DNA from: Escherichia coli
Lineage (GTDB): Bacteria; Pseudomonadota; Gammaproteobacteria; Enterobacterales; Enterobacteriaceae
Assembly: GCF_044324875.1 (NCBI RefSeq)
Contig: NZ_CP172185.1
Length of the DNA: 64,000 nucleotides
Strand: one strand, 5' to 3'
Shown: one piece after another, positions 50,987 through 52,317 of the stretch
Layout: each line of letters opens with the position of its first letter
How positions within the stretch are numbered: position 1 is the stretch's first letter
Made by a program: the position numbers and the translations under genes
The notes under the pieces: generated by a model
The model's database searches: none
Seen by the model: the letters and a program-made list of their open reading frames with translations, nothing else
Told to the model about the DNA's origin: nothing

Positions 50987-51004
50987 AACTTAGTTCGTTT
51001 TAAA

Positions 51005-51031
51005 GATTCTCCAGACAGTGTCTGGAGAATT
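51005..51031. repeat. Palindrome gattctccagac-agt-gtctggagaatt in yhcH/yhcG convergent gap
   Basis: Perfect 11-bp arms (attctccagac / gtctggagaat) around a 3-nt spacer; related to the two palindromes inside yhcG (51761-51834). Confidence 0.7.
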
Positions 51032-51045
51032 CGAAACCGCTGAAA

Positions 51046-52134
51046 TTAACGGCGTCTATAGCCTTCCTCTAGCACCGCCTGTGTTCGAACGAGTTCATCT
51101 GCGAGTCGTTTCTCATCAGGTAGTTGCATCTTATATTCGCTTGCCAGAACGGTGTTAGGCAAACCTGCCAGAGCATAATGCGCTTCGCCGGCTCCTTTCT
51201 CTGCACAGAGAATCAGACCGATGGGCGGATTTTCATCCGGTAGCGTCCAGTGATCTTTGGCGTAGTTGAGATACATATTCATCTGTCCGGCATCGCTATA
51301 GCTGAATTTGCCCACTTTTAGATCGACGATTAGCAGGCAGCATAAACGGCGGTGGAAAAACAGCAGATCGACACGAAACCAGTTATCATCAATGCGTAAC
51401 CTTCGCTGCCGACCAACAAAGGCAAAATCATCCCCAAGTTCCAGCATGAAATCCATCAGGTGGTTGATCAGCGCCTCCTCGAAATCAGATTCTGAATATT
51501 CATCTTTCAATTCCAGAAATTCGAGCACAAAGGGATCGCGTATCGCCTGCTGCGGAAGAATATGCGTCTCGGTAGGAGCGTGTTGTTGCAGCATGGCTGA
51601 TTTGTCATGTGACAGTAGTGTTCGCTCATAAAATTGGGTCGCAATTTGCCGCTCTAGCTGGCGAACAGACCAGCCACAGCGGAGCGTCTCTTTTTCATAA
51701 AAGCTACGAGCGTCAGCGTTTTTAACAGAAAGCAAACGGACGTAAGTGGACCAGGGCCGGGGGAAAGATTTGGCAGACAGCGTCTGCCAAATCTTTCCCG
51801 ATGGGAATTCTGCAGACGGTGTCTGCGGAATTTCAACATGTTGAAAAAAGAGGTAAAAAAGTCTCATTTGGCGCAAGTTTTTTGCAGAGAACCCACGCTT
51901 ATACCTTAGACATAAATCCTTTGATAGTCGCTTGATTAGCTGCGCACCATACGCAGCCCTGGCCTCGCCACCTTGTTCAAATTCGACAATTCGTCGGCCA
52001 ATTTCCCAGTATGTCGCGGTCATCAGCGCGTTAACGCTACGTACCGTTTCCGTCCGGGCGCTATCGACCAGGTGAATAATACCGTCGTGGATTTGCTGGT
52101 AGCCTGTTGAGGTTCTCTCTGAGAGCGATTCCAT
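51046..52134 (-). CDS. yhcG: DUF1016-family putative PD-(D/E)xK nuclease YhcG
   Basis: ORF track 51046..52134 (362 aa) MESLSERTSTGYQQIHDGIIHLVDSARTETVRSVNALMTATYWEIGRRIVEFEQ...; ATG confirmed at 52134; convergent with yhcH. Confidence 0.85.
   Translation of the reverse strand: MESLSERTSTGYQQIHDGIIHLVDSARTETVRSVNALMTATYWEIGRRIVEFEQGGEARAAYGAQLIKRLSKDLCLRYKRGFSAKNLRQMRLFYLFFQHVEIPQTPSAEFPSGKIWQTLSAKSFPRPWSTYVRLLSVKNADARSFYEKETLRCGWSVRQLERQIATQFYERTLLSHDKSAMLQQHAPTETHILPQQAIRDPFVLEFLELKDEYSESDFEEALINHLMDFMLELGDDFAFVGRQRRLRIDDNWFRVDLLFFHRRLCCLLIVDLKVGKFSYSDAGQMNMYLNYAKDHWTLPDENPPIGLILCAEKGAGEAHYALAGLPNTVLASEYKMQLPDEKRLADELVRTQAVLEEGYRRR
51761..51834. repeat. Two adjacent palindromes inside the yhcG coding sequence
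   Basis: P1 51761-51799: gggaaagatttggcagac-agc-gtctgccaaatctttccc (perfect 18-bp arms). P2 51803-51834: gggaattctgcagac-ggt-gtctgcggaatttc (14-bp arms, 2 mismatches). Both share the CAGAC-N3-GTCTG core with the intergenic copy at 51005-51031. Confidence 0.8.
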
Positions 52135-52317
52135 TATCTGTCCCTTTATATGGCGCTGCGTTGAATAATGGAATCAGCTATACGCCGGGCATCTACCGGT
52201 AACAATCCAGATGTGCGTATTACATTGGTTTTCTTCAGATTATGCGAGGCGCTTTCCAGTACGAAAGGAGAATTTCAGCGCCGACTCTTTTCTGAGGAGG
52301 CGGCGCTGGGACAGAGT

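Follow-up and report, generated by a model that had tools for sequence, protein, structure and literature searches.

An Escherichia coli yhcG gene carries two near-perfect palindromes side by side within its reading frame, and the question raised by this locus is why such symmetric DNA should lie in translated sequence: as an inserted and duplicated unit, as a repeat of the protein, or as a structure site of the nucleic acid itself. The answer was sought in the locus, in its alleles and in homologues from many phyla.

The palindromes of the yhcG locus

The window analysed was a 64-kb stretch of E. coli DNA, in which yhcG lies between gltD and nanQ (yhcH), convergent with the latter. The features of the locus are the following:

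51046..52134, minus strand: yhcG coding sequence, 362 aa, an open reading frame annotated as yhcG in E. coli genomes
aa 19-171 and aa 195-347 of YhcG: Pfam domains DUF1016_N (PF17761) and YhcG_C, a PD-(D/E)XK nuclease (PF06250)
51761..51799, strand-neutral: P1 (array unit C), a perfect palindrome of 39 bp, its 18-bp arms enclosing a 3-nt loop
51768-51792: canonical 25-bp element in P1, ATTTGGCAGAC-GCT-GTCTGCCAAAT on the coding strand
51804..51834, strand-neutral: P2 (array unit B), 14-bp arms with 2 mismatches
51807-51831: canonical 25-bp element in P2, ATTCCGCAGAC-ACC-GTCTGCAGAAT, 10/11 pairs
51006..51030, strand-neutral: extragenic third copy, ATTCTCCAGAC-ACT-GTCTGGAGAAT on the yhcG strand, perfect 11-12-bp arms

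The product belongs to the DUF1016/YhcG family according to its Pfam matches (E = 9e-41 for DUF1016_N, followed by 5.9e-56 for YhcG_C), and it is also matched by the PADLOC profile PDC-S02, a candidate single-gene defence system (E = 3e-133). This family is very large, with 23,855 cluster representatives at E <= 1e-3, and its members occur in chromosomes, restriction-modification loci, conjugative elements and phages. A search of solved structures by sequence with YhcG gave no match. The nuclease domain is NucS-like, with a resolvase-like fold (PMC1189080), and the N-domain weakly resembles the palindrome-binding domain of ParB/KorB. Residues 103-120, encoded by the hairpin region, belong to a disordered loop of the N-terminal domain (pLDDT below 50).

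The inverted-repeat search recovered P1 as the earlier note had described it, with arms at 51761-51778 and 51782-51799 that are 18 nt long, 100% complementary and separated by 3 nt. For P2, arms of 12 nt were detected at 51806-51817 and 51821-51832 (92% complementary), which hand reading extended to 51804-51817 and 51821-51834; the 14-bp arms with two mismatches claimed for it therefore stand, whereas the start given at 51803 was one base too far out. Both palindromes were verified to be in frame with yhcG on the minus strand and to encode consecutive peptides at residues 101-125. P2 specifies E-I-P-Q-T-P-S-A-E-F (aa 101-111), the first encoded peptide being EIPQTPSAEFPSG at residues 101-113, and P1 specifies G-K-I-W-Q-T-L-S-A-K-S-F-P (about aa 112-125), the second being KIWQTLSAKSFP at residues 114-125.

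The core CAGAC-N3-GTCTG was found in both palindromes, as noted before, and a third core that had been missed lies at 51012-51024, in a copy that starts 14 nt past the yhcG stop codon, between yhcG and nanQ. A chance origin was ruled out by the three cores in the 64-kb window against 0.03 expected and by the stability of the folds, which as single-stranded DNA reached -20 kcal/mol for P1 (z = -10.4) and -7.5 kcal/mol for P2 (z = -6.4). Six hairpins in the window combine a 3-nt loop with at least 11 pairs, and three of them are P1, P2 and the extragenic copy. Likewise, a covariance model run across the 64-kb window returned these three copies, all at yhcG, and nothing further, with scores of 42 bits for P1 (E = 2e-8), 36 bits for P2 (E = 9e-7) and 41.7 bits for the extragenic copy. 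None of the three hairpins was called as an intrinsic (Rho-independent) terminator, and a T-tract is absent from the tails that follow them (CTTTCCCC, TCCCATCG and CTTTAAAAC). Rfam searches of the window and of 20 diverse loci revealed no relevant family, a mir-3913 match at E = 0.4 being spurious.

A base-paired element in the reading frame of a protein family

In virtually every DUF1016/YhcG gene, an element of this kind sits in fixed frame in the codons of the disordered loop. It measures 25 bp, reads 5'-ATT-N4-AGAC-(R-N-Y)-GTCT-N4'-AAT-3' or covarying variants of this sequence, and begins with the Ile codon ATT. The family sample comprised 80 loci or genomes from many phyla (309 kb) and seven remote homologues, and a hairpin was defined by a 3-nt loop and at least 9 pairs. 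Among the 134 hairpins of the 80 loci, 92 were placed no more than 200 nt upstream of the W-S-x-Y codons, the other 100-nt bins holding 0-4 each, and the reading frame was identical for all 92. Frame and codon position were kept at 37-66% protein identity across phyla, which makes the element ancestral to the DUF1016 family and overturns the earlier proposal that a small palindromic unit had been inserted in yhcG. At the standard threshold, 73 of 77 loci had a hairpin, and a looser scan found a best unit with at least 9 of 11 pairs in 78 of 78. For the remote peptides IRDALRLES and IVHPLGAQF, a hairpin was predicted before the DNA was seen and was confirmed in the encoding sequences (GATTCGAGACGC-gct-GCGTCTCGAATC and AATTGTGCACCC-act-GGGCGCACAATT, respectively); five more remote homologues all carried one (5/5) with unrelated stems, and the hairpin was thus found in 7/7 remote members. 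The viral contigs scanned for the commonest variant gave 0 matches. The literature searched on yhcG, DUF1016, COG4804, PDC-S02 and palindromes does not describe the element, and a conserved DNA hairpin in DUF1016/YhcG genes appears to be unreported.

What is conserved is the Watson-Crick complementarity of the arms and not the encoded peptide. When the codons of 77 loci were resampled synonymously, keeping the peptides and the codon usage of each gene, 1.64 hairpins were obtained (maximum 6) against the 89 observed. Codon choice within the element was accordingly narrow: Ile was ATT in 81/83 cases, Ser was TCT in 70/79, Lys was AAA in 50/50 and Thr was ACA or ACG in 77/77, with ACC or ACT in 0, and rare codons were used systematically, high-GC genomes included. 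The 11-bp helix was 97% Watson-Crick paired, and 10 of its 11 pairs had changes on both sides. Double-change cells numbered 203 against 57 in shuffles, and slid controls were 18-49% paired; the units of this alignment had been chosen as hairpins, a choice for which the synonymous resampling controls and the covariation count does not. Moreover, equally good palindromes in other clades encode different peptides, such as ISETxSRKS, ISESxIRKS, ILQSxIEEI, ICGAVRHE, IGEKPSHQ and IRDALRLE. The earlier note had expected a chance or protein-driven feature to leave homologues with the same residues and no DNA symmetry; distant homologues instead keep the symmetry and change the residues. Covariation, resampling and the remote members together identify a conserved base-paired nucleic-acid element.

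The same alignment bears on the kind of nucleic acid concerned. Among about 1030 cells, G-U pairs occupied 6 and other mismatches 31, and the coding-strand mismatches were G:T in 8 cases and A:C in 10. The loop was always 3 nt, R-N-Y, symmetric between the strands, and pairing fell sharply at the ATT/AAT base, from 96% to 50% and then 28%. Neither the G-U tolerance nor the constraints specific to the transcribed strand that mark a structured RNA were seen. Since there is no G-U preference and all constraints are strand-symmetric, the element probably acts as DNA rather than as an mRNA hairpin. The suggestion of a structure site overlapping the coding sequence is therefore upheld for nucleic acid, because the palindromy exceeds what the peptide needs and the arms covary, and its RNA part is disfavoured.

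Copies are not maintained equally. About one near-perfect unit is kept per gene, usually the 5'-most, and extra units decay. In the 78 loci, the best unit of the gene was paired at 11/11 positions in 55, at 10/11 in 18 and at 9/11 in 5, and the non-best units averaged 8.7/11. Among single-unit genes, 16/24 had a perfect unit, and in multi-unit genes the 5'-most unit was the best in 40/54. Relic arrays with in-frame stops, a small sample, were still 8-11/11 paired, equal to the secondary units of intact genes.

Copy number, extragenic copies and breakpoints

The tandem units of variable number that the earlier note had envisaged were recovered by allele alignment. Escherichia yhcG alleles carry 1, 2 or 3 units of 39 bp and encode 349, 362 or 375 aa, respectively, and a second allele class encodes 358, 370 or 382 aa with 36-bp units. 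The YhcG of K-12, given as about 375 aa in the earlier note, has exactly that length, and the 13-aa difference corresponds to exactly one 39-bp unit. K-12 and the majority of E. coli have this unit A, which encodes E-I-H/R-Q-T-M/V-S-G-E-L-T-P-L-G, and its deletion is bounded by the AATTC sequences with which units A and B start. At least three distinct deletion junctions were observed among the alleles and the reading frame was kept, as in an in-frame variable-number tandem repeat. The units of the array are 62-76% alike, with spacers of 0-14 nt, and TRF detected no array at this locus or in K-12. Two further features come from these comparisons:

51832..51842, minus strand: junction left by the loss of unit A (39 bp), from an alignment of six alleles
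51754..51925, minus strand: divergent patch, 54-80% identity between two E. coli allele classes by sliding identity

Outside the divergent patch, the yhcG sequences of the two classes are 92-100% identical. The patch takes in the array of hairpins plus roughly 100 nt lying 5' of it, and stops at the last hairpin. Differences among Salmonella alleles were likewise concentrated, 11 of 16 falling in aa 66-115. Moreover, a BL21-type replacement stops exactly after the GCCAAAT of P1, and an IS1 junction is located inside P1. Thus 39-bp deletions, the BL21-type replacement, the IS1 junction and divergent patches all coincide with hairpins, in a few haplotypes of E. coli and Salmonella. An IS at the BL21-type junction was considered and rejected, as no Pfam or NCBIfam model matches the 101-aa product annotated there as a 'transposase', and in 726 genomes the 461-bp segment occurs in a single copy.

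The idea of an element dispersed in this genome was not sustained, since blastn and the covariance model placed E. coli copies only at the yhcG locus. The extragenic unit was found at a median of 2 places per genome in 5,426 E. coli genomes, a count that one site may enter twice because a palindromic query can match it on either strand, and all of the places inspected belonged to the yhcG locus. In most E. coli this copy reads TGCAGAC-AGT-GTCTGCA, a compensated G:C to C:G change within a flank identical over 85 nt. Strains that lack yhcG retain a single copy of the element in a 67-bp gltD-nanQ spacer. A simple insertion of yhcG at this hairpin is contradicted by the flank on the gltD side, which differs between empty and occupied haplotypes, and by Salmonella, where yhcG is also syntenic after gltD; for these reasons the empty site is more likely a deletion.

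Rare orphan copies with no recognisable DUF1016 gene were also found in intergenic DNA, metagenomes included. Several lie 19-59 nt past a stop codon, and orphans also adjoin an HsdS-like gene and genes for conjugative relaxases. In the roughly 1 Mb of DNA fetched, 218 family-type hairpins lay within DUF1016 genes or beside them and 22 lay elsewhere, 20 of these 22 coming from loci fetched because they contained the searched pattern and some of the outlying hairpins being decayed DUF1016 fragments.

Candidate roles and comparison with known systems

P1, P2 and the extragenic copy are instances of this one 25-bp, two-fold symmetric family element, and we consider it an evenly balanced proposition that it is a cis-acting DNA site recognised by a symmetric, structure-sensitive protein. 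The element might form a stem-loop on single strands, or else serve as a symmetric duplex site or as one able to form a cruciform; extruding arms of 11-13 bp in this way demands much energy. The most plausible candidate binder would be the YhcG dimer itself, with its NucS-like nuclease domain and weakly ParB/KorB-like N-domain. The site could control yhcG, or it could promote breakage and gene conversion at the locus, and the latter role would explain why the E. coli breakpoints and the divergent patch coincide with hairpins. Units of the array are lost and gained by unequal exchange between them. In its outer part, the 5' arm of P1 repeats the neighbouring ancestral A-K-S-F-P codons as their reverse complement, as judged against allele 2 and Salmonella, and P1 therefore probably grew by foldback copying. 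Against the favoured reading, binding of a symmetric dimer to duplex DNA is not in itself a reason for the four variable positions to stay complementary, strict Watson-Crick pairing could be explained by templated correction through foldback synthesis, copying of a kind that P1 displays, and the orphans lacking a recognisable DUF1016 gene are hard to reconcile with a role restricted to YhcG. A more specific proposal, conceivable but doubtful, is that YhcG, as a candidate anti-phage nuclease, carries its own structure-specific target within its coding sequence, on which YhcG or a host junction-resolving enzyme acts. If so, the target would be a built-in switch or sensor of supercoiling or single-stranded DNA, or a means of autoregulation, and it could start the gene conversion that diversifies and spreads yhcG. 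We know of no precedent for a DNA-level cis element conserved by covariation inside an ORF.

It is unlikely that the element is a functionless, self-perpetuating quasipalindrome whose arms are recopied by intrastrand template switching faster than point mutations accumulate, its conserved bases reflecting weak peptide constraints coupled through the palindrome. The outer arm of P1, the compensated change in the noncoding E. coli copy with its identical 85-nt flank, the strictly Watson-Crick pairing free of wobble, the persistent pairing of relic arrays (8-11/11) and the disorder of the encoded loop are all in agreement with such a process. Mutational drive should, however, keep all units alike, and secondary units decay (mean 8.7/11) while one stays perfect; nor does it readily account for a hairpin in 73/77 loci, in 78/78 as a best unit of at least 9/11 and in 7/7 remote members, for the sharp stop of pairing at the ATT/AAT base, for a loop fixed at 3 nt R-N-Y, or for Thr encoded only by ACR. 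A hairpin in the yhcG mRNA, as a protein-binding site, a ribosome pause between folding units or a transcript-stabilising barrier, would suit an element that folds stably and is always transcribed within an ORF. Orphans would then be 3'-end hairpins of neighbouring genes, which agrees with their position 19-59 nt after stop codons, as in REP-like stabilisers, and with the E. coli extragenic copy between convergent genes. Yet this too is unlikely, given the scarcity of G-U cells (6 against 31 other mismatches), the similar numbers of G:T and A:C mismatches, the missing T-tract and Rfam family, and a reverse-complement symmetry of loop and constraints that an RNA made from one strand does not need.

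Two further alternatives were weighed. Rickettsia palindromic elements insert in frame and are a precedent for a mobile palindromic element, REP-, MITE- or RPE-like, that entered yhcG and was then duplicated; the copy outside yhcG, the one at the empty site and the orphans near relaxase and HsdS-like genes would be its traces. This reading is largely refuted, and very improbable, in view of a codon position and frame that are constant across phyla at 37-66% protein identity, the restriction of E. coli copies to the yhcG locus and the 218 hairpins at DUF1016 genes against 22 elsewhere. Selection of the peptide I-x-Q-T-x-S-[AG]-[EK] at the protein level, with DNA symmetry as a by-product, could draw on the recurrence of this motif in many homologues and on the capacity of CAGAC-N3-GTCTG to encode Q-T-x-S, but it is refuted, and scarcely credible, since resampling yields 1.64 hairpins instead of 89, rare codons are used systematically, other clades have different peptides and the same element is present in noncoding DNA.

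For a family whose function has not been established experimentally, this frame-locked, covarying palindrome is a concrete and easily testable handle, and synonymous recoding cleanly separates the DNA element from the YhcG protein. The array accounts for the 349/362/375-aa length polymorphism of E. coli yhcG, several structural breakpoints of which coincide with hairpins. More generally, strong nucleic-acid constraints can hide in the codons of a 'disordered linker' and shape annotated peptide repeats, and the element offers a natural system in which to ask whether selection or templated self-correction maintains short genomic palindromes.

Several known systems share part of these properties. 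The array differs from a CRISPR array in that its units are 62-76% alike, its spacers measure 0-14 nt and it is translated. ParB/KorB operators conserve sequence and require no complementarity at uncontacted positions, whereas the four free positions of the YhcG element stay complementary. REP/BIME sequences are also short palindromes, sometimes in tandem, found at gene 3' ends and beside an associated nuclease or transposase gene; nevertheless, REPs are extragenic, imperfect, present in hundreds of copies and marked by a conserved 5' tetranucleotide, and the YhcG element has three copies at one locus, two of them coding, with no RAYT (Y1 HUH transposase) gene at the locus, where the neighbours are gltD and nanQ. 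Similarly, RPEs are palindromic DNA translated within a tolerant surface or loop region of a protein, but they are dispersed, 100-150 bp long and inserted independently in unrelated genes, unlike a 25-bp element ancestral to one family. The presence or absence among orthologues, at varying positions, that characterizes MITEs and RPEs was not observed, the position being constant in the homologues tested.

Integron attC sites resemble the YhcG element in conserving structure together with short fixed bases at the stem ends, while the stem sequence is free, and both mark boundaries of exchanged DNA. However, attC sites are 57-141 bp long and imperfect, with extrahelical bases, are used on one strand and occur outside ORFs, adjacent to a platform that carries an integrase, and the YhcG element, of 25-39 bp, is perfect, strand-symmetric and in frame, which sets it apart from them; no integrase gene was noticed among the listed or inspected neighbouring genes. 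In type I HsdS subunits, direct 12-bp repeats in the central region change copy number in frame, as between EcoR124I and EcoR124II. In both HsdS and YhcG arrays, unequal crossing-over alters the length of a linker in the DNA-recognition protein of a defence system, although the HsdS repeats lack the palindromy of the YhcG units; we know of no functional consequence of copy number for YhcG. Finally, template-switch hotspots at quasipalindromes of E. coli, reportedly described by Ripley and by Lovett and colleagues, resemble the YhcG element in being short, imperfect inverted repeats, one arm serving as template for the other and several 'compensatory' changes arising at once; the extension of P1 into neighbouring codons and the compensated extragenic change are consistent with template switching. 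Such hotspots are, however, incidental to single genes, whereas the YhcG element occupies one codon position throughout the family with stem length and loop fixed, and one copy per gene is preferentially maintained.

Palindromes at the yhcG locus and their copy number

The two palindromes described by an earlier note inside yhcG, a gene of the DUF1016/YhcG nuclease family, were confirmed in the window with the same arms, and a third hairpin, unnoticed at that reading, was found outside the gene:

yhcG: 51046-52134, minus strand, 362 aa
P1 (unit C of the array): 51761-51799, in yhcG, perfect 18-bp arms around a 3-nt centre
P2 (unit B): arms 51804-51817 and 51821-51834, in yhcG, 14-bp arms with 2 mismatches
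Extragenic hairpin: 51006-51030, perfect arms, its centre being the third core

The core common to P1 and P2, CAGAC-N3-GTCTG, occurred 3 times in the 64 kb versus 0.03 expected, and the inner 12 bp of P2 were 92% complementary by the inverted-repeat tool. The extragenic hairpin begins 14 nt past the yhcG stop codon, between yhcG and the convergent nanQ/yhcH. A search of the window for AATT-N3-CAGAC-N3-GTCTG-N3-AATT with up to 3 mismatches returned these three sites and no other. The suggestion of a dispersed element was not borne out. Folded as single-stranded DNA, P1 reached -20 kcal/mol (z = -10.4), and three of the 6 window hairpins of such grade were the yhcG-locus copies. In YhcG, the palindromes correspond to residues 101-113 and 114-125. 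As the canonical element is an odd-length in-frame palindrome, its reverse complement also codes for an I-x-Q-T-x-S-type peptide in the corresponding frame, which is why relic arrays show 'QT.S' repeats on both strands (e.g. the array at locus L153).

In K-12 and most E. coli, yhcG has 1128 bp and 375 aa, the K-12 length given in the earlier note being right, and carries three units, encoding the following peptides:

Unit A: EI(H/R)QT(M/V)SGELTPLG
Unit B: IPQTPSAEFPSAK
Unit C: IWQTLSAKSFPLP

In the window gene unit A is missing, 39 bp being deleted from between the AATTC starts of units A and B. The ETEC1734 gene, also of 362 aa, lacks another 39-bp stretch, which runs from the B loop to the C loop. 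Protein clusters revealed lengths of 349, 362 and 375 aa in the allele class of the window and K-12, and of 358, 370 and 382 aa in a second class built of 36-bp units; single-unit alleles presented several distinct junctions. The proposal of a variable-number array was thus borne out by allele lengths and differing junctions alike.

A paired element throughout the DUF1016/YhcG family

At the equivalent position, homologues of 37-60% identity presented I-x-Q-T-x-S-like peptides in 1-5 copies, and some distant homologues carried quite different repeated peptides. It was predicted, before their DNA was seen, that these odd peptides were the translation of an AATT-N8-N3-N8'-AATT palindrome, and this was what the DNA revealed: PIRDALRLES was encoded by GATTCGAGACGC-gct-GCGTCTCGAATC and TIVHPLGAQF by AATTGTGCACCC-act-GGGCGCACAATT. 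In all five further remote members, a hairpin directly preceded the conserved L-S-W-S-H-Y; their stems were unrelated, among them GTGGCGC/GCGCCAC, CTCTCCAC/GTGGAGAG, CTCGACGC/GCGTCGAG and GGTGAGAAG/CTTCTCACC. Moreover, 80 loci (309 kb) from Proteobacteria, Acidobacteria, Cyanobacteria, Planctomycetes, Verrucomicrobia, Chloroflexi, Ignavibacteria and one Methanoperedens archaeon were scanned for hairpins with a 3-nt loop, at least 9 pairs and at most 1 mismatch. Of the 134 found, 92 sat no more than 200 nt 5' of the W-S-x-Y codons, all remaining 100-nt bins holding 0-4 each, and these 92 shared a single reading frame with Ile ATT as first codon. With frame and position constant, also in the remote members, the insertion envisaged in the earlier note did not hold up, and the element is a property of the whole gene family.

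The consensus was 5'-ATT-[Y N S S]-AGAC-(R-N-Y)-GTCT-[S S N R]-AAT-3'. Pairing ended sharply at the ATT/AAT base (96%, then 50%, then 28%). Counted from the centre, positions 6-9 accepted 3-4 Watson-Crick pair types each while remaining 91-98% paired, and minor classes had a compensated inner block (GAGAC/GTCTC, GAATC/GATTC, GCGAC/GTCGC, TCGAC/GTCGA and CAATC/GATTG). In an alignment of 95 units, which had been selected as hairpins, the 11-bp helix was 97% paired; two-sided changes affected 10 of the 11 pairs, double-change cells numbered 203 versus 57 in shuffles, and pairing was only 18-49% when the partner was slid by 1-3 columns. Free of that selection bias, synonymous resampling in 77 loci, applied to the 210 nt preceding the anchor with peptides and per-gene codon usage unchanged, yielded a mean of 1.64 hairpins (maximum 6) versus 89 observed, and at least one hairpin was present in 73 of the 77. 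Codon choice within the element agreed with this: Ile was ATT in 81/83 cases and Ser TCT in 70/79, Lys and Glu at codon 8 were without exception AAA (50/50) and GAA (24/24), and Thr was ACA or ACG only, never ACC or ACT. Resampling and codon choice together indicate that the symmetry resides in the nucleic acid, the peptide being a by-product. In the AlphaFold2 model, residues 97-127 form a coil between two helices of the N-terminal domain DUF1016_N, with pLDDT below 50 at residues 103-120, which fits a loop that would tolerate any palindrome-encoded peptide. A conserved nucleic-acid element, neither protein-driven nor due to chance, is very probable, and the idea of a nucleic-acid site overlapping coding sequence at P1 and P2 was upheld.

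An RNA hairpin transcribed from one strand should gather G-U pairs and strand-specific features, unlike what was found. Helix cells of the 95-unit alignment held 6 G-U versus 31 other mismatches; on the coding strand, G:T (8) and A:C (10), the latter being G:T on the opposite strand, were equally rare, and the R-N-Y loop preference was identical read from either strand. No T-tract followed any of the three window copies, and no Rfam family matched in the window or in 20 diverse loci. From the substitution patterns, a constraint at the DNA level is therefore inferred, which could concern a cruciform, stem-loops formed by either single strand, or a duplex site with two-fold symmetry.

Copies outside the gene were also surveyed. 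A metagenome scan with the commonest variant, ATTCTCCAGAC-N3-GTCTGGAGAAT, returned 120 loci, and 109 of 124 matches lay in or adjoining a DUF1016 homologue; the remaining ones were degenerate arrays interrupted by in-frame stop codons (L121, L153, L210 and the pseudogene L149) or single intergenic orphans, several of them shortly past a stop codon and two groups directly 3' of a MobF/TraI relaxase gene. The fetched DNA, about 1 Mb in all, had 218 family-type hairpins in or near DUF1016 genes and 22 elsewhere, 20 of these 22 coming from loci fetched for containing the searched pattern; other outliers were a DUF1016_N fragment (L078) and a leader hairpin (L090). The orphans and arrays directly downstream of conjugative relaxase genes were L182:3949, L130:341, L172:7813 and L121:9435-9560, and the five-unit array of L153 adjoins an HsdS-like gene. 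In the verrucomicrobial locus L090, this family-type leader hairpin (GATTTCCGAATC-acc-GATTCGGAAAAC, centre 1380) precedes the start codon of the DUF1016 gene by 27 nt and differs in stem class from the gene's internal GAGAC-class units. At the contig start of L080 (203-275), two family-type hairpins, ATTCGACCGAC-act-GTCGGTCGAAT and ATTCAACAGAC-agc-GTCTGTCGAAT, located about 1.1 kb before the DUF1016 gene, may come from a second, truncated paralogue. Other features recorded were a DUF3800-VII RNA (Rfam RF02967, 84.6 bits) just 3' of a verrucomicrobial DUF1016 gene (L093:2702-2789, minus strand) and a group II intron fragment (RF02012) in L182.

Selection, arm-to-arm copying and rearrangement

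A serious rival explanation is that the palindrome merely perpetuates itself by templated copying from arm to arm. The long 5' arm of P1, GGGAAAGATTTGGC, is the reverse complement of the A-K-S-F-P codons GCCAAATCTTTCCC, which are ancestral, being present in allele 2, Salmonella and other enterobacteria, so that P1 would have grown by foldback copying. Similarly, the noncoding extragenic copy reads TCCAGAC-ACT-GTCTGGA in the window versus TGCAGAC-AGT-GTCTGCA in most E. coli, differing by a compensated pair and the loop centre amid 85 nt otherwise identical. Both cases point to templated copying between arms. A purely mutational drive, however, should show no positional preference, whereas about one unit per gene was near-perfect: across 78 loci the best unit had 11/11 pairs in 55, 10/11 in 18 and 9/11 in 5, non-best units of the same genes averaged 8.7/11, 16 of 24 single-unit genes were perfect, and, among 54 multi-unit genes, the best unit was the 5'-most in 40. 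The stem base was likewise fixed, as were the lengths of stem and loop. These comparisons provide evidence for selection superimposed on a templated mutational mechanism. The full explanation preferred here, a selected DNA element that would act in cis, is given even chances; that the encoded nuclease itself reads the site is a tentative and rather doubtful proposal.

Several structural differences were located at the hairpins. The junctions of the 39-bp deletions were unit starts or loops, and one IS1 insertion had its junction within P1. In the BL21 type (726 E. coli genomes), a single-copy 461-bp segment stood in place of the extragenic hairpin and of two-thirds of yhcG, on the 3' side, the junction lying exactly past GCCAAAT, the final base of the canonical P1 element and base of its hairpin. 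This segment carries a 101-aa ORF labelled 'transposase' (WP_000639208.1; L008:1105-1410, BL21 and 725 other genomes), which had no Pfam or NCBIfam match and whose annotation looks wrong. The two E. coli allele classes did not differ in their first 210 nt; identity fell to 54-80% over nt 210-410 and was 92-100% beyond, the divergent stretch comprising the array and about 100 nt upstream (window 51754-51925). Likewise, between two Salmonella alleles (proteins P0097 and P0054), 11 of 16 differences fell within residues 66-115. Both genera share a dimorphism upstream of the hairpin, NLRQMR versus NLWQIR/NLWQFK, with the two-state pattern NLRQMR.FYL versus NLWQ[IF][RK].FY, which suggests patch exchange between genera or balancing selection. 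These cases, few in number, would fit a hairpin at which recombination is initiated or bounded locally.

The gltD-nanQ interval (window 50987-52317 versus loci L001-L011) is a multi-haplotype hotspot of E. coli with five arrangements:

1: gltD directly adjoining yhcG (the window)
2: gltF-yhcADEF inserted upstream of yhcG (K-12)
3: yhcG absent, a single hairpin in a 67-bp spacer (two genomes examined)
4: BL21-type truncation, 461-bp single-copy replacement (726 genomes)
5: IS1 insertions and adjacent deletions

No yhcG match was obtained in 962 of 5,426 E. coli genomes. In the two yhcG-less genomes examined, the gltD-nanQ spacer held one perfect copy, AAATTCGCCAGAC-AGT-GTCTGGCGAATTT, with 28 nt identical to coding unit A of strain A37. 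In Salmonella, yhcG adjoins gltD and contains a single perfect hairpin, an extragenic copy being absent; since this synteny indicates that yhcG is old at this position, the empty E. coli site more likely represents a deletion than a virgin target. In all gltD-adjacent haplotypes, GAAATTCTCC, a sequence identical to the initial 10 nt of the extended 5' arm of the hairpin, stands alone upstream of yhcG (~52267-52276, minus strand, 42 nt past the gltD stop); it might be the relic of a half-site or a chance match. The 8-bp inverted repeat that precedes it, CAGCGCCG...CGGCGCTG, is perhaps the stem of the gltD terminator.

Relation to known systems

A stationary-phase ncRNA, G0-10703, has been reported divergent from and antisense to the K-12 yhcG 5′ UTR with a 128-bp overlap (PMC7967276), which excludes the hairpins. 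Literature searches on yhcG/DUF1016/COG4804/PDC-S02 and palindromes, which covered a minority of subscription journals, yielded no description of the element. The element failed the defining tests of REP/BIME, MITE/RPE insertions, attC sites, CRISPR repeats and intrinsic terminators. It qualifies as a variable-number repeat that keeps the reading frame, and may in part behave as a quasipalindrome template-switch site would; it was rated as akin to conserved base-paired elements and palindromic repeat units, being unusual in that it is DNA-like, frame-locked within an ORF and conserved through a whole protein family.
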